A DNA stretch of 63,872 nt, counting the filler, from Deltaproteobacteria bacterium (GTDB taxonomy: Bacteria > JAUYMQ01), in assembly GCA_030698575.1 (NCBI GenBank). It is 9 parts of 9 records of this genome, joined end to end, with 100 filler letters (N's around TTAATTAATTAA, not from the genome) between each part and the next. Parts side by side here need not be neighbours in the genome. Positions count along the whole stretch, not along the records: positions 61,177 to 63,872 come from JAUYMQ010000093.1; 8 more parts are not named here. The stretch is one strand, 5' to 3'. Below are positions 8,774 through 63,872 of the stretch, piece after piece (the stretch's first letter is position 1; every line of letters starts with the position of its first letter). The notes beneath the pieces are model-generated. The model was given only the letters and a program-made list of their open reading frames with translations. It ran no database searches and was not told the DNA's origin. Position numbers and translations under genes: made by a program.

Positions 8774-9652
8774 TCAGAGAGAGCGCGCGGGCTCCACGAT
8801 CGTCTCAGCAAGTTTGTCCAGCGTCGGCTCGATCAGCTCGGTTGTGGGCAGCATGACGAGCAGGATGACCTGATCCACCCCGGCCGCCGCGTAGCGCTTC
8901 ACCTTGTCGAGATCGACGGTTTTCATGTAGGGGCAGATGCTGATCTCGACGTCGCTCAGGGCGCGGCCCCGCTCGACCAGGAGCCGCTCGAGCTTCTCGA
9001 GGCGCTCCTCCGTTTCATCCGGCTCGAGGCCGAAGCCGTACCAGCCATGGCCGAGGTCAGCCACGCGCCGGAGCGCTGCGTCGCTCTCGCCGCCGAAGTG
9101 AATCGGCGGGTATGGATCCTGAACGGGCTTGGGATACATGCGGCAGGCCGGAAGCTCGTAGAACTCGTCCTTGTATTCCGAGACCGCGTCGCACCAGAGA
9201 GTCTTCATGACCTCGATGTAGGATCGGCAGCGCTCGGCGCGCCGCTCGAAGGGCATCTGGAGCGCCCGGAACTCCTCGGCGAGCCAGCCGACGCCGATGC
9301 CCATGTCGAAGCGGCCGTTCGAAAGGTAGTCGAGCGTGGCGGCGTCTTTCGCGGTGTAGACCGGGCTGCGCTGCGGGAGCAGGCAGATCCCCGTGCCGAG
9401 CCGGATGCTGCGCGTCACGGCGGCCACGTAGGAAAGCGTCACGAAGGGGTCCATGAGGCCCGACTCACCCGAGGCCGGAAACTTCCCGTCGGGTGAGTAG
9501 GGGTACTTCGACTGGTAGTGATCGAAAAGAACGACGTGCTCGGCTGCCCAGAGGGAATGGAAGCCGCGCTGCTCGGCCGCCGGGCCGAGGGTCTGGATGT
9601 ACTCACCCGTTGCCCAGGGGCTGCTGAATGGGGGAAAGATGCCGATCTTCAT
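8774..9652 (-). CDS. LLM class (putative F420-dependent, Rv2161c-like) oxidoreductase
   Basis: GFHSLWAAEHV, DPFVTLS, IRLGTG, LDYLSNGRF..GIGVGW..EEF, PKPVQ.P.PPI; ATG 9652. Confidence 0.88.
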   Translation of the reverse strand: MKIGIFPPFSSPWATGEYIQTLGPAAEQRGFHSLWAAEHVVLFDHYQSKYPYSPDGKFPASGESGLMDPFVTLSYVAAVTRSIRLGTGICLLPQRSPVYTAKDAATLDYLSNGRFDMGIGVGWLAEEFRALQMPFERRAERCRSYIEVMKTLWCDAVSEYKDEFYELPACRMYPKPVQDPYPPIHFGGESDAALRRVADLGHGWYGFGLEPDETEERLEKLERLLVERGRALSDVEISICPYMKTVDLDKVKRYAAAGVDQVILLVMLPTTELIEPTLDKLAETIVEPARSL

Positions 9653-9671
9653 GCCGCCGCTCCTTCCGGTA

Positions 9672-10553
9672 TCAGTCCGCCAGGAACTCGCTGACGTACT
9701 CGAGGAACAAATCGAGCTGATCGTGGTGCACCCAGTGTCCCGCGTCGTCGACGTTGACCACGCGCGCGTTCCGGAACGCCTGGACCCTGCCGTCGGCTTC
9801 GGGATCGCTCGCCCAGCTCTCCTTGCCGCGGAACAAAAGGGTGGGACATGCGATGCGTCCCCAGAGTTCGTTCGCCTCCTCGACATTGAAGTGATCCGAC
9901 GAGAAGACCCGCACGTAGTTGTCGAACTTCCAGGAATAGGTGCCGTCCTCGTTCTGCGTGGTTCCGTGTCGGGTGAGATGGCGCGCCTGCTCGGGCGTCA
10001 GGTGCGGGTTGGCGTCCTGCATCCGCGCGCAGGCCTCGTCGAGATTCTTGTAGCGGCGCGGCAGCCTTCCCGCGAGGTCGCGCACGGTGTCAATCCAGCC
10101 GCCGATTCGCTCCTGCGGCGATCTCTTCACCCGCTCGGCGACCATCTTGGGCGACGGCCCGAGCCCCTCGATAGCCACCAGCCGGTGCACGTTCTCGGGG
10201 TAGAGGCCGGAGTAACGGAGCGCGATGGCGCCCCCGAGCGAGTGGCTCACGATGCGCACCGGAAAGAGCTGCTTCTGGTGCAGGAGCTGGGCGATGTCGT
10301 AGACGTAGTCGTCCATGCGATAGGTGCTGCCGATGACCCACTGCGAGTCACCGTGGCCGCGGAGATCGGGGGCGATGATGTGATACTCGTCGCGGAGCGC
10401 CTGGGCGACCCAGTCCCAGTTGCGACAGTGATCCTGCCCCCCGTGAACGAGCAGGAGCGGGGGCGCGCCCTCGTTCCCCCAGTCGACGTAGTGGAGCCGG
10501 AGGCGCTGCGAGTAATAGACGTGAGAAGTGGGTCCCGCGATGGGCGTCGGCAT
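9672..10553 (-). CDS. Alpha/beta fold hydrolase
   Basis: LLVHGG, APDLRGHGDS, SHSLGG nucleophile elbow, AGHWVHHD. Confidence 0.9.
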   Translation of the reverse strand: MPTPIAGPTSHVYYSQRLRLHYVDWGNEGAPPLLLVHGGQDHCRNWDWVAQALRDEYHIIAPDLRGHGDSQWVIGSTYRMDDYVYDIAQLLHQKQLFPVRIVSHSLGGAIALRYSGLYPENVHRLVAIEGLGPSPKMVAERVKRSPQERIGGWIDTVRDLAGRLPRRYKNLDEACARMQDANPHLTPEQARHLTRHGTTQNEDGTYSWKFDNYVRVFSSDHFNVEEANELWGRIACPTLLFRGKESWASDPEADGRVQAFRNARVVNVDDAGHWVHHDQLDLFLEYVSEFLAD

Positions 10554-10830
10554 GCGCCTATCCTAGCGAACTCCGTGCCGAATTGGGAATCCGCCCGGCG
10601 GCCGCCTGCGGGCCCCGCCAGAGGGCCGCATCCCGCCGGCGCCTGGAGGCATCTATAGAGCGGTATCCATATATACATATACGGGCCATGCAGGTGCGCG
10701 GACCGCGGGCGGCGGTTCGGCCCCGCTCGCAGCGGGCGGGGGCTGAACCGCCTTCAGATTCTGGGGTGGGGATTAAGGGGAGGGGTTTAGATGATGATAG
10801 GAATGGGTTTTCAATGATGGGAGGGGATTG

Positions 10831-11718
10831 ATGATGCTGATGATGAAGGGCGCGATCGGAAGCCTCGTAAGCGTGCCGGGCGTGTTGCTACTCGTTCTGA
10901 TGTCGATTGGCTGCGGGTTCTCGGACATCCGAACGGAGCGCGTGAAGGCGGGCCTCACGCAGGAAGACGCCTCCCGCGGGCGGGCCATCCTGGAGGCCGC
11001 AATGGAGAAGAGCGGTGGCATCGCCGCCTGGAAGGCGCACCGAACCGCCGAGGCGACGATGAGGGACGACTGGCCGAGCATGTTCATGCGGCCGTTCTTC
11101 ATGCCCTGGCCCGAGAACAAGGCGCCGATCCGGTTCCAGTTCCTCCTCGGGACGAACGCCTCACGTCTCGAATTCCTGGAGGGTTCCCGCCAGGGCGAGA
11201 TCTGGGGAATCCAGAACTGGTCCACCTACGAACAACGGGCTGGAGAGCCGAGCCGGTTCGAGAAAAACGCCGACGCGCAATTCTTCCTTCCCACCTTCCA
11301 GTGGTTCTTTGAAGCGCCCTTCCGGCTCCCCTATGCCGACATCGTCACCTATGCCGGCGAGGGGAGCGCCGCCGGGCGCGTCTATGATCTCGTCTTCGCG
11401 ACCTGGAACAAGCCCGAACCGCAGGAGAAGATCGACCAGTACCTCGTGTGGGTGAACCAGGAAACGGGCCTCATCGACTTCCTTCAATACACCGTGCGCG
11501 ACATGATGAGATTCGCCCGCGGCACCATGCAGTTCACGGATTACCGGGACGTGCAGGGGATCAAAGTCGCCTTCAATCAGACGGTCGTGCTGGAGGATGA
11601 GCCGGACGGTACGCGCATTCTGCACCAGGTCATTCTGAGCGACGTGAACTTCGGCGTGGACATTCCCCGGGGGGCCTTCTATCCCGACCCCGCGGTTCGC
11701 GCGGCCAAGCACAACTAA
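10831..11718 (+). CDS. Hypothetical exported lipoprotein
   Basis: About 295-aa ORF with GC3-rich codon usage; hydrophobic N-terminus ending MSIGC (lipobox-like); start uncertain among several ATGs. Confidence 0.65.
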   Translation: MMLMMKGAIGSLVSVPGVLLLVLMSIGCGFSDIRTERVKAGLTQEDASRGRAILEAAMEKSGGIAAWKAHRTAEATMRDDWPSMFMRPFFMPWPENKAPIRFQFLLGTNASRLEFLEGSRQGEIWGIQNWSTYEQRAGEPSRFEKNADAQFFLPTFQWFFEAPFRLPYADIVTYAGEGSAAGRVYDLVFATWNKPEPQEKIDQYLVWVNQETGLIDFLQYTVRDMMRFARGTMQFTDYRDVQGIKVAFNQTVVLEDEPDGTRILHQVILSDVNFGVDIPRGAFYPDPAVRAAKHN

Positions 11719-11766
11719 ACGCTGTTTTCCCGTTCGAGACGTAGCAACGCTTCTTTAGTTGCGAGG

Positions 11767-11866
11767 NNNNNNNNNNNNNNNNNNNNNNNNNNNNNNNNNN
11801 NNNNNNNNNNTTAATTAATTAANNNNNNNNNNNNNNNNNNNNNNNNNNNNNNNNNNNNNNNNNNNN
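11767..11866. other. Artificial contig spacer
   Basis: N-run with TTAATTAATTAA. Confidence 0.99.
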
Positions 11867-12500
11867 CCTCGATCTCCGGCCGAAATTCACGCTCGTTGAT
11901 GTTACGAAGAACATCCAGCGGCTCGACACGAGGTTCCTCGAGGATAGCCTGGCCCGCCATTCCAGCGGTGTGGCCGTGCTGGCCCACCCCGAGGATGTGA
12001 TGGACACCCAGGCGATCAAGCCCGAGCAGATCCGACGGGTCCTGCGCCTGCTCCGCAGCATGTTCGATTTCGTCATCATCGACACATGCAACACCTTTGA
12101 CGAATCGACGATCGAAGCCTTCGAGTCCAGCGATCTCATCGTGCTCGTATCCACGGTCGATCTTCCGGCCATCCGGAACGCGCGCCGGTGCCTGAACATG
12201 TTCCGGCGATTCGGCTACGGGAACGACAAGGTGAAACTGGTGTTCAACCGGGAGGCGAAGAGCAACGAGATCACGCTGAAGCAGGCGGAGAAGGTTTTGA
12301 ACTACCCGATCTTCTGGAAACTTCCGAACGACTACCCGACGACCATCGCCTCGGTAAACGAGGGCGAGCTGATCAACAAGGTGGCGCCGCGGTCGGATTT
12401 GCATCGGAGCATGCTCGGTCTCACCGCTGAACTGACCGGGCTGGACGTGGCAAGGAAAGCACCGAGGGGCGTCTTCGGCAAGTTGCTGGGGCGGGGTTAG
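11867..12500 (+). CDS. cpaE: CpaE/TadZ-like pilus assembly ATPase (MinD-like), 5'-truncated
   Basis: FDFVIIDT, DLPAIRNA, LVFNR, LPNDY..SVNEG; lies upstream of cpaF. Confidence 0.8.
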
Positions 12501-61076: not shown

Positions 61077-61176
61077 NNNNNNNNNNNNNNNNNNNNNNNN
61101 NNNNNNNNNNNNNNNNNNNNTTAATTAATTAANNNNNNNNNNNNNNNNNNNNNNNNNNNNNNNNNNNNNNNNNNNN
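61077..61176. other. Artificial contig spacer
   Basis: N-run with TTAATTAATTAA. Confidence 0.99.
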
Positions 61177-62116
61177 GGACGTTGTGGGCGAGCGTCGGCC
61201 CTCGACGATCTGCGTCCCCCTCGTCCACTGCGCCGTTGAGCGCATTCCTCGATCCCTTGATTACGCGGCGATACTGGTGGACGCGGTTGTCGAACCAGAC
61301 CGGCAGCACCGGATCGAAGAGAACCCGGTTCAGTAAGCCGTAAACGCTGTCGGGGCCGAGAGCCGAATTGTATGAGCTCAGGTCGTACCCGAAAATCTTC
61401 ACCAGCGTTCCGACGGGGAAGGCCGGCTCGTCGATCGGAAACTCCAGGGCTTGGCCGCTGCGGGTCAGGTACACGTAGTGCCCGCTCTTGAACTGCTCTG
61501 GCGGCAGGTCGAGGAACTTCACGACCGTGAATCCGACCGCCGGGTGCCCGGCCTTGCGGGTCGCGATCAGGGTGTACTTGCTGACCGTGAGGGTGCTCGA
61601 ACCTCCCTGGCCGTACACGCCGGCGAGATAGTGCTTCTGCATCTTGTTGCTCTCGTTCAAGCTCAGGATCGTGCCGGCCATCTCGTGGGGCGCCAGCCCG
61701 ATACCGTAGTCCCGCACCTCAACGGTCCGGCCTTCCCGACCGTCGCCAGGAAGCAGTCGGATCACCGTCCGATCGGCAATCGTCTGACGCTGGCGCGTCG
61801 TCATCTCGCTGAGCCCGGCCTCCGGCACGTTCAGCCACGCGGTCGCGGCCTCCTTCGGGCTGCGGCAGACGGGGACGCCGCGATGGCCCGCGTGCTCGGC
61901 CTCCAGGATTGCGTCGATCCCGTTCGTGATGCGTTCGACGAGTGCCCGGCCGGGGTCGGTGGAGACCTCGATCACGCCCCGGTTGGCGTCACGGGCTCCG
62001 AAAGCCGTCCATCTCAGCTCGGGTCCGTGTGCGGCGTCGAACGCTTCGAGCGCCGCCTCGACTTCCGCCGTGGTCGTTGCTAACTGGAGTGCCTGGAGGA
62101 ATTCACCGTTTTCCAT
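61177..62116 (-). CDS. Uncharacterised GHKL-type (MORC/TopoVI-B/MutL-like) ATPase, 3'-truncated
   Basis: ERITNGID (N-box ExxxNxxD), VRDYGIG (G1), SNK, GVYGQGG (G2); start overlaps the MTase end by 14 nt. Confidence 0.8.
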
Positions 62117-63068
62117 TCGTGCCCCTCGTCGTCCGGCGAAGGAACCGCCCTCGTGACCCCTCGATGTAGTCGTCTTGAGGCTCGATCGCGACCCAGCGCC
62201 GCTTCAGCCGCTCCGCCGCCGCGCCCGTGGTGTTGCTGCCAGCGAACGGGTCGAGCACCATCTCCCGAGGCGTCGTCAGGAACTTGATGAAGAATTCGGC
62301 GAGGCCGATGGGCATCCGGGCGGGATGCAACCCGTAGCCGGTCTCATGGCAGTAGCTAAAGTAACGATCGCTGTTGTCGGTGTTCGTCAGCGTTATCACG
62401 TTCGACGGGATCGCGCCGCTGTTGTCCCGCAGGAAGGACGTGGCGCCGATGTCGTGCTGAGAGGGGCGCTTGCCGGAGTTGTACTTCTTCGATGAGAGGA
62501 GCCGGAGCATCGCCGGACTGTACGACTTGAGGACCCGGCGGTTGTCCGCCTTCGGGCGCTGCGTCGGCGACATCCACCAGACGTGCGTGTACGAGTCCTT
62601 GACCCTGATCCGCTCGACGTTGACCCATTGCACCGGGCTCGGGAGGCGGGCCGGGTTGTAGCACACGAACTGCTGGCACAGGTGGAAGCCGCCTTTGTTG
62701 AGGAAGCGCAGGAGCGCGCGGAGCGCGAGCGTTGACATGACCGGCTGCCCCGGCTCCCAGGCGTTGCCGAGTTCGATGACGATGGAGCCGTCGCTCTTGA
62801 GCAGGTTACGGAATACGGGCGCGAAGCTGGCGAACCACTTAATGTACGCCTCCCCCTGGCGGTTGCCGTACTTCTTCTTCCGGTTCAGGGGAAAGGGGGG
62901 TGACGTGAAGATGAGCTGCACCTTGCGCCGGTATTTCATGGCGAGCCGGGGGCTCTTGAGGGCCTCGGCCCACCCACGGTACATCACCCCGCCGCGGGTC
63001 TTGTACGCGATGCGGACGCGAGGGTGCCCTACACCGCCGGCCGTCGTTGGCGGGCCATTTTGCTTCAC
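62103..63068 (-). CDS. Site-specific DNA methyltransferase, beta class, M.PvuII-like (N4-cytosine)
   Basis: TSPPF.L.RKK.YGN, NPARLPSP..WVN..RIRVKD, RPS.HDIG, HPAR.P, DPFAGSNTTG; closely parallels M.PvuII; GTG 63068 start approximate. Confidence 0.9.
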   Translation of the reverse strand: MKQNGPPTTAGGVGHPRVRIAYKTRGGVMYRGWAEALKSPRLAMKYRRKVQLIFTSPPFPLNRKKKYGNRQGEAYIKWFASFAPVFRNLLKSDGSIVIELGNAWEPGQPVMSTLALRALLRFLNKGGFHLCQQFVCYNPARLPSPVQWVNVERIRVKDSYTHVWWMSPTQRPKADNRRVLKSYSPAMLRLLSSKKYNSGKRPSQHDIGATSFLRDNSGAIPSNVITLTNTDNSDRYFSYCHETGYGLHPARMPIGLAEFFIKFLTTPREMVLDPFAGSNTTGAAAERLKRRWVAIEPQDDYIEGSRGRFLRRTTRGTNGKR

Positions 63069-63349
63069 GTCCCGTGCTCGACCAGGTTGTCGCCGCAGTA
63101 CAGGTGATTCACACTGCGGCCATTCTAGCCGATCATGGGAATGCGTGTCTCGGTGTCGGCCAATCGTCGCCTCCGGCGGTGTCCACACGGTCATGCTGGC
63201 CCTGGGGGCGCTGCCGTGTCGTGCGCCGAGCGCATAGGAACGATTAACGCCATGTCCGCTGGGACGGCGGGCGTCCCACCCGGTCCGGCTGCCTCGCGAA
63301 CCCGGCACCGGACCCGGGAGGGCCCGATCTGGGAGGGTGGTCGTGACTG

Positions 63350-63381
63350 AAACACGGGTTCGAACCCAGTCGGGCCGACCA
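63350..63381 (+). mobile_element. tRNA 3'-end fragment, putative attR of a tRNA-integrated element
   Basis: AAACACGGG-TTCGAAC-CCAGT-CGGGCCG-A-CCA: T-arm, acceptor 3' strand and CCA, with no D-arm or matching 5' acceptor strand upstream. Confidence 0.55.
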
Positions 63382-63613
63382 GAAGGTCACGGAGTTTCGG
63401 AGGTGTTGCTGACTCTGAGTGTCCGCGTTCTGTCCGTGTTCCCTTGTCCAAGGGTTCACACAGGGCGTGGCGAGCGCTCAGCAGACCCTGCAAAATCACG
63501 CCGATGGGGACACTTGAGACATCCTGGAAGCGGCGAGTCGAGTGCATCACCTGCGGCACGACGACCGGGTGTTCTTAGGCGGCTGCTCGTAGCGGCCTGA
63601 CCATCACCAGGAT

Positions 63614-63705
63614 CCCCTCACCCTGACCCTCTCCCCCGCGGCGGGGGGAGAGGGTTTCTGTTTGTGGCCCCCTCTCCCCTCTGGGGAGAGGGTTGGGGTG
63701 AGGGG
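63614..63705. repeat. Inverted pair of REP-like CCCTCACCC...CTCTCCC...GGGAGAGGG elements
   Basis: CCCCTCACCCTGACCCTCTCCCCC...GGGGGGAGAGGG, then CCCTCTCCCC...GGGGAGAGGGTTGGGGTGAGGGG. Confidence 0.75.
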
Positions 63706-63723
63706 CGCGGTAGAATCTCCCGC

Positions 63724-63872
63724 ATGACCCACAGACGCTGGCTCGAGGCGCGCGCCCCCCGCGGCATGGTCGCATCGCCCCACGCGCTGGCCTCCGCCTC
63801 GGGCGTGACGGCCCTTCGCGCGGGCGGCAATGCGCTGGGGACGCCGCCATCGTCGCCGCGGCGACGATCGAC
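63724..63872 (+). pseudogene. ggt: Gamma-glutamyltransferase N-terminus with an apparent frameshift (or read error); runs off window end
   Basis: MTHRRWLEARAPRGMVASPHALASASGVTALRAGGNAL, then DAAIVAAATI in another frame after CTGGGGAC (2 extra G). Confidence 0.6.

Follow-up and report, generated by a model that had tools for sequence, protein, structure and literature searches.

On the last of the nine pieces into which a 63,872-nt stretch of DNA from a Deltaproteobacteria bacterium (assembly GCA_030698575.1; the whole stretch is here called the window) splits at its runs of N, we found a gene for an M.PvuII-like DNA methyltransferase (MTase, 62103-63068) followed directly by a gene for a GHL-type ATPase, that is, a GHKL ATPase domain joined to a transducer domain (61177-62116). 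This piece comprises 2696 bases (61177-63872), and both open reading frames (ORFs) lie on its minus strand. Judged from the sequences, the M.PvuII-type methylase and the GHL ATPase are both predicted to be competent and appear to form a conserved, co-inherited, translationally coupled and mobile pair. We see about an even chance that the pair constitutes a self-contained, horizontally mobile two-gene module resembling a restriction-modification (R-M) system, with the ATPase directed at unmodified DNA.

The first-pass annotation had read the two genes as an operon, and the neighborhoods of their homologs, collected as a set of 84 related loci (four genome loci, L001-L004, plus 80 metagenome loci, the best among 194 matches), bear out a conserved link. 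A PvuII-like MTase, 47-83% identical to that of the window, occurred in 75 of the 84 loci; in 68 it is the immediate upstream neighbor in the same orientation, in five it lies convergently downstream and in two elsewhere. Among the nine loci lacking it, five have 54 bases or fewer upstream, L097 carries a different PF01555 MTase convergently downstream (4e-39), L086 shows a weak match to a D12-class MTase (24.5 bits versus 22), and no MTase was recognized in L095 and L080. Across 37 pairs, the pairwise identities of MTase and ATPase were correlated (r 0.73, a value reached in none of 2000 permutations), a co-divergence that we read as co-inheritance and not as evidence of interaction. Clustering of ORFs of at least 90 aa across the 84 loci yielded no third gene present in more than six loci, shadow ORFs aside, and the flanks of L001-L004 hold unrelated housekeeping genes and Pfam families that differ in every locus; without a shared third gene and with variable flanks, the element is therefore a two-gene cassette. 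Metagenome-assembled genomes (MAGs) that carry it, at 60-67% identity, bear the labels of four different phyla, which fits horizontal mobility of the cassette. The family is rare: among 401 sampled genomes of the phylum to which genome G002 belongs, five gave a match at 1e-10.

The identification of the MTase as a beta-class, M.PvuII-like enzyme of the N4/N6 group proved sound. The gene likely starts at GTG 63068, giving a protein of 321 aa (293 aa if the internal ATG at 62984 were used), and ends with a stop codon at 62103-62105. It scored 105.9 bits against PF01555 (105.5 for the 321-aa form; cut-off 26.7), matched the PADLOC model MTase_II (PDLC03323) at 3.8e-87, and aligned with M.PvuII (PDB 1boo) at E 1.2e-77, colinearly and with two small gaps, residues 20-284 corresponding to 32-297. 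Both signature motifs were read directly from the sequence and lie within the M.PvuII alignment: the catalytic SPPF (motif IV, 62892-62903), which aligns with the SPPF of M.PvuII, and DPFAGS (motif I, binding S-adenosylmethionine, 62235-62252). Since motif IV is N-terminal to motif I, the order is that of the beta class. The product is probably N4-methylcytosine (m4C) at a fixed short site, and the target is possibly CAGCTG-like. CAGCTG is mildly under-represented, with observed/expected ratios of 0.48 for the window and 0.73 for the related loci when pooled (765 kb), but this is uninformative because several other palindromes are equally low. A mini-ORF of 15 codons in another frame (63065-63112, minus strand) overlaps the GTG start of the MTase; it may be due to chance or be a remnant, and we presume that it resembles ‘hLYxGDxL’, a motif at the N-terminus of many DNA methylases.

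The two genes overlap by 14 nt (62103-62116), as the first-pass annotation had stated, because the ATPase begins with an ATG at 62116 and the stop codon of the MTase ends at 62103. Gene overlap suggests translational coupling of MTase and ATPase, and the commonest stop/start junction in the related pairs was likewise an overlap, of 4 nt (14 of 48 clean pairs). In a single locus out of 84, L003 from a Gemmatimonadales MAG (8834-12298), MTase and ATPase share one frame of 1154 codons with no intervening stop, which is either a natural fusion or the result of a lost stop codon. Such fusion or tight coupling of modification and restriction recalls Mod-Res enzymes.

The ATPase ORF is cut at 61177 by an artificial contig joint, an N-run with the stop linker TTAATTAATTAA at 61077-61176, and the end of the window is not responsible. 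Because the contig ends here, the window holds only the first 313 of approximately 765 residues, or 41% of the gene; an extension of the contig was sought in four DNA sequencing runs with parts of the stretch, which gave short, low-depth contigs at about 3-7x, none of which passes 61177, and no RNA run is listed as containing it. In the four genome loci the full-length relatives measure 764-766 aa and are 60-67% identical to the fragment. The nuclease suggested as possibly lying beyond the contig end is not supported: what the fragment lacks in full-length loci is the remainder of the same protein of about 765 aa, with transducer, Ig-like domain and helical tail, and no conserved third gene accompanies it.

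Database models recognize little of the ATPase. Against Pfam the fragment gave a below-threshold match to HATPase_c_3, limited to the stretch around the G1 box (E 0.0014, 19.1 bits versus 25), and there was no NCBIfam match, no PADLOC match and no meaningful match among PDB sequences. In 43 diverse relatives N45, E61, N65, D68, D136, G138, G140, K158, G166, G169 and G171 are invariant, as are G236, G288, R406 and P507. The complete set of GHKL motifs that had been noted in the 313-aa ORF is thereby corroborated, comprising the N-box ERITNGID (E61, N65, D68; 61913-61936), the G1 box DYGIG (D136-x-G138-x-G140; 61697-61711) and the G2 box or ATP lid GVYGQGGS (G166..G169-Q-G-G-S173; 61598-61621). 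The family is accordingly predicted to have a complete ATP site of the Bergerat fold together with the transducer arginine (R406). An insertion of about 65 aa between N-box and G1 had also been described, which is roughly right as a spacing, N65 and D136 lying 71 residues apart.

The predicted structure of a full-length relative agrees with this assignment. Modeled with AlphaFold, the L001 protein, which is 67% identical to the fragment, reached a predicted local distance difference test score (pLDDT) of 80.9, and its C-terminal residues 495-766, folded separately, 95.1. The Foldseek comparison, which the first-pass annotation had called for, returned Hsp90, GRP94 and the 43K fragment of GyrB at E of about 1e-11 over 400-446 columns. 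With VIA-align, Hsp90 gave Z 18.8 (root-mean-square deviation, rmsd, 4.3; 310 residues aligned), followed by MORC3 (16.1), Topo VI-B (15.6-16.0), SMCHD1 (15.5), and MutL and GyrB (both 15.4). These structural alignments span residues 41 to about 445 and cover the N and M domains of Hsp90, MORC3, MutL LN40, GyrB 43K and Topo VI-B. The model, as a prediction, confirms a GHKL domain with a transducer, and since Z is similar for Hsp90, MORC3, Topo VI-B, SMCHD1, MutL and GyrB, the protein is a GHL module to which no one class is clearly closer. Overall the AlphaFold models have a four-part architecture of GHKL domain, transducer, Ig-like sandwich and helical tail, in which residues 495-766 comprise the Ig-like sandwich (best Z 8.9, rmsd 2.4, 89 aligned), followed by a small beta unit and then by three long helices. 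Members of the family are numerous: of 7999 candidates scored, 656 proteins reached E <= 0.001, and a profile search collected 1721 representatives at that threshold, of which 1173 passed 1e-10 and 454 passed 1e-30. All of the 120 family members listed are named ‘hypothetical’ or ‘uncharacterized’, and four of them carry a precomputed PF13589.

The mechanism that we propose for the cassette has four steps. By homology, the M.PvuII-like MTase would methylate host DNA, and from motifs and fold the coupled downstream gene is expected to encode a catalytically competent GHL ATPase. By analogy with Hsp90, MutL and MORC this ATPase may work as a dimeric, ATP-gated clamp, and gene context suggests that the clamp would engage DNA without the mark of its partner and block or damage such DNA, be it through trapping, an unrecognized catalytic site or a nuclease recruited from the host, while the methylase, again from gene context, would protect the host’s own DNA.

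Beyond the close family, the recurring theme of the superfamily is an ATPase beside a DNA-modification module of varying chemistry. A diverged subfamily of 694-862 aa is represented by four loci with gene context (L014-L017), and in each of them the PF01555 MTase is convergent and permuted in a different way; L015 and L016 share an extra upstream gene of about 380 aa (46% mutually identical, no Pfam match), and in L014 DndB is found upstream of the diverged ATPase (PF14072, 1.5e-27). Relatives of the ATPase were also found in five plasmid records, 25-29% identical to the query, and in three of the five SspB (1.5e-112) and/or SspD (1.9e-116, 5.3e-91) adjoins the relative, SspB and SspD being found on two of these plasmids and SspD by itself on the third. 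These Ssp-linked relatives (26-28% identical) lie on plasmids of Devosia (L019), Ensifer (L020) and Hymenobacter (L022). In L019 the relative also adjoins a protein of about 780 aa with HATPase_c_3, HEF_HK and HATPase_c, the corresponding double-GHKL neighbor of about 780 aa in L020 is annotated as a sensor histidine kinase, and both loci have an adjacent protein of about 650 aa without any match, while in L022 SIR2 and DUF262 genes adjoin the relative. We considered whether the Ssp-linked relatives are SspFGH and rejected this, because SspF contains a Walker A motif and SspH resembles FtsK (PMC8092258), and because PADLOC gave no match to SspF, SspG or SspH, the models for SspE, SspF, SspG and SspH all remaining unmatched. 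The Ssp-linked ATPase relatives may represent an undescribed restriction partner of Ssp modification. With these relatives in mind we put forward, tentatively, a bolder proposal: a nuclease-free GHL clamp might read the missing mark and silence or stall unmodified DNA, as a minimal two-gene system of the BREX kind, and its superfamily might have been re-used for m4C or N6-methyladenine (m6A) set by several classes of methylase as well as for Ssp/Dnd phosphorothioation marks.

Several observations weigh against a module that restricts unmodified DNA. No nuclease or helicase came to light in the family or among its immediate neighbors: of the Pfam models HATPase_c_3 alone matched, in 12 of 43 diverse members, PADLOC matched none of the 43, and Foldseek and VIA-align found Ig-like sandwiches alone and no nuclease fold in the C-terminal model, of which the residues after about 615 (the last ~150) are barely covered. 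Conserved charged residues are almost absent from the C-terminal half, D535 alone being near-invariant (~90%) with E740 at 77%. Furthermore, L095 has room on both sides of its ATPase gene, yet no recognizable MTase. Two overlapping ORFs (8974-9997) make up a split MTase beside an intact ATPase in L001, which, if real, is an argument against a lethal restriction partner; the reverse is seen in L079 (1364-3666), where the ATPase is split and the MTase intact, and both splits are either real decay or indel errors of the assembly. The defence-island setting that the first-pass annotation had proposed to look for is not clearly present, as PADLOC matched few of 135 neighboring ORFs from 64 loci (among them AbiEi three, mad2 three; raw counts without a baseline), the neighbors are mostly housekeeping genes, and no phage-borne copy was matched in 50,697 phage records.

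A different role for the ATPase would be that of an accessory to the methylase, an ATP-driven clamp or chaperone by which the MTase is loaded, moved or regulated, for epigenetic regulation or efficient maintenance methylation, with no restriction at all. The Hsp90-type chaperones at the top of the structural matches (Z 18.8), a natural MTase-ATPase fusion as in L003, the empty nuclease searches, the housekeeping neighbors and the intact ATPase beside the split MTase of L001 would all suit such a helper. However, M.PvuII-type enzymes are not known to require an ATPase, the cassette behaves as a mobile selfish unit across phyla, and the distant relatives pair with chemically unrelated modifications, methylation and phosphorothioation. 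With such unrelated partners a shared reader of the ‘unmodified’ state is possible, but a dedicated helper of one enzyme is not, and we judge the accessory role unlikely.

The ATPase gene occupies the position of an R gene, and its product might be a restriction endonuclease of the conventional ATP-dependent type with an unrecognized catalytic site. Such a site could belong to the beta/helical domain at the C-terminus or, on the pattern of MutL-type endonucleases, to the transducer. The last ~150 residues, barely covered by the fold search, leave space for it; an atlas look-up with residues 612-766 gave no score above 0.88. However, the C-terminal half lacks a conserved constellation of acidic, histidine and lysine residues beyond the partial conservation of D535 and E740, and the family profile found nothing better than E 0.03 among PDB sequences. 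Two restriction models, NF050001 (restrict_BbrUII, the R.BbrUII/HgiDII family) and PDLC03419, matched, in the genomes examined, only GHKL-containing ORFs, which is a point in favor of this reading; but both miss the family genes in four of four genomes. NF050001 matched none of the four cassette genes at E <= 0.1 in the four cassette-carrying genomes, PDLC03419 left the cassette genes there unmatched as well, and the matches of NF050001 fell on other loci of these genomes (best 8.6e-88, G004:C57). A separate endonuclease gene was not recovered either: PF09225, for R.PvuII-type endonucleases, was silent in all four genomes examined, as it was in the control genomes, and no endonuclease or C-protein gene was recognized upstream of the MTase of the window, where short ORFs were left unscanned. 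That the ATPase is itself a conventional endonuclease seems to us a doubtful explanation. That the cassette serves pure addiction (post-segregational killing) or DNA repair, with no role against phages or plasmids, is very improbable: solitary cassettes among housekeeping genes, the rarity of the family (five out of 401 genomes of one phylum) and the MutL-like fold (Z 15.4) would agree with it, but no mismatch-repair partners are linked, and addiction and defence are not mutually exclusive in R-M-like modules.

In its general kind the pair is not without precedent. GHKL ATPases with an S5-type transducer (MORC and paraMORC1-5) were predicted in 2008 as components of R-M operons that mostly hold helicases and nucleases too (Iyer, Abhiman & Aravind, PMC2292703), and the claim of a candidate new system has to be moderated accordingly; neither PADLOC nor NCBIfam has a name for the ATPase. 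As described there, the likenesses extend to GHKL plus S5-type transducer, adjacent DNA methylases, a sporadic distribution across phyla and a proposed role as the ATP engine of a restriction-like system. In contrast, MORC/paraMORC operons usually add SF2 helicases or partners with RE-fold, HNH, Vsr or TIR domains, none of which occurs at this cassette, and the C-terminus of the present family is an Ig-like sandwich with a helical tail. ParaMORC3 is now GHKL-Shedu (VcSduA; PMC12137116), and Tiamat is a larger GHL-nuclease protein (preprint 10.64898/2026.09.30.754977). Both are anti-phage proteins that share with the present family an N-terminal GHKL/GHL ATPase, and some Tiamat neighborhoods include DNA methyltransferases; both carry a PD-(D/E)xK nuclease (DUF4263 being the Shedu domain), whereas neither DUF4263 nor DUF3684 gave a Pfam match in our 43 members. 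With PADLOC at 0 of 43 and no DUF3684 core in Pfam, the family does not match the Tiamat models.

Other comparisons are more remote. The MTase is a close colinear homolog of M.PvuII, with SPPF before DPFxGS, but unlike the PvuII R-M system the cassette has no linked R.PvuII-type endonuclease, its partner being an overlapping, co-directional GHL ATPase of 765 aa. BREX and type III R-M systems are likened to it by mechanism only, in that self DNA carries the mark of a site-specific methylase and unmodified DNA is stopped by a partner containing an ATPase (in BREX, phage DNA replication is inhibited; PMC13081857); BREX comprises six genes, none for a GHKL ATPase, the type III Res subunit is an SF2 helicase-nuclease unlike the GHL ATPase, and homology of either with the cassette is confined to the methylase superfamily. 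The ‘two-component-like’ GHKL proteins with HEF_HK plus Response_reg_2 beside R-M genes, as presented by Bellieny-Rabelo et al. (2021, PMC8011034), touch our data through the HEF_HK-type gene adjoining the L019 relative; unlike them, the present family has a single GHKL domain, neither HEF_HK nor a second HATPase_c, and its close members pair with a methylase only. We found no published description of the pair, in a search that left subscription journals, REBASE and supplementary files outside, and by its sequence the ATPase family appears unnamed in Pfam, NCBIfam and PADLOC beyond the weak HATPase_c_3 match.

The remainder of the last piece holds features that lie upstream of the cassette. 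An ORF on the plus strand leaves the end of the window (63664-63870), and its residues 29-59 weakly resemble the N-terminus of gamma-glutamyltranspeptidase; all ten of its PDB matches are to the gamma-glutamyltranspeptidase family or cephalosporin acylase, at weak E values of 0.14-0.48, it has no Pfam match, and it is probably a housekeeping neighbor of the cassette. A G+C-rich palindromic repeat at 63607-63706, with arms CCCTCTCCCC and GGGGAGAGGG, looks like a dispersed element of the REP type: its summed depth is very high, reaching 359, many loose ends occur in all four runs at 63614, 63668-63670 and 63704-63706, and Rfam gave spurious miRNA-hairpin matches only. Between this repeat and the MTase lies, at 63357-63381 on the plus strand, a fragment resembling the 3’ end of a tRNA, with a T-arm-like GGTTCGAACCC, a 7-nt stem, A and CCA. 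ARAGORN found no tRNA in the window and Rfam none in 61177-63872 at E <= 1, and a second copy of the fragment, sought within the window, was not found. In two soil runs, 63350-63531 is matched by contigs from an organism of greater abundance, which show 16 differences and part from the window sequence at 63350. The fragment could be an att-type remnant of an island inserted at a tRNA gene.

By itself the window is of limited value, because the assembly truncates the ATPase gene, but the cassette is compact enough to be cloned from a relative. Should the pair restrict foreign DNA, it would rank among the smallest modification-based immune modules, with a ‘restriction’ half devoid of any known nuclease or helicase. 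Since the family is large and anonymous, naming and testing it would annotate many genes. If our reading as an R-M-like module is true, the cassette would bear on how clamps of the GHKL/MORC type read epigenetic marks, a question that is the same for the eukaryotic MORCs.

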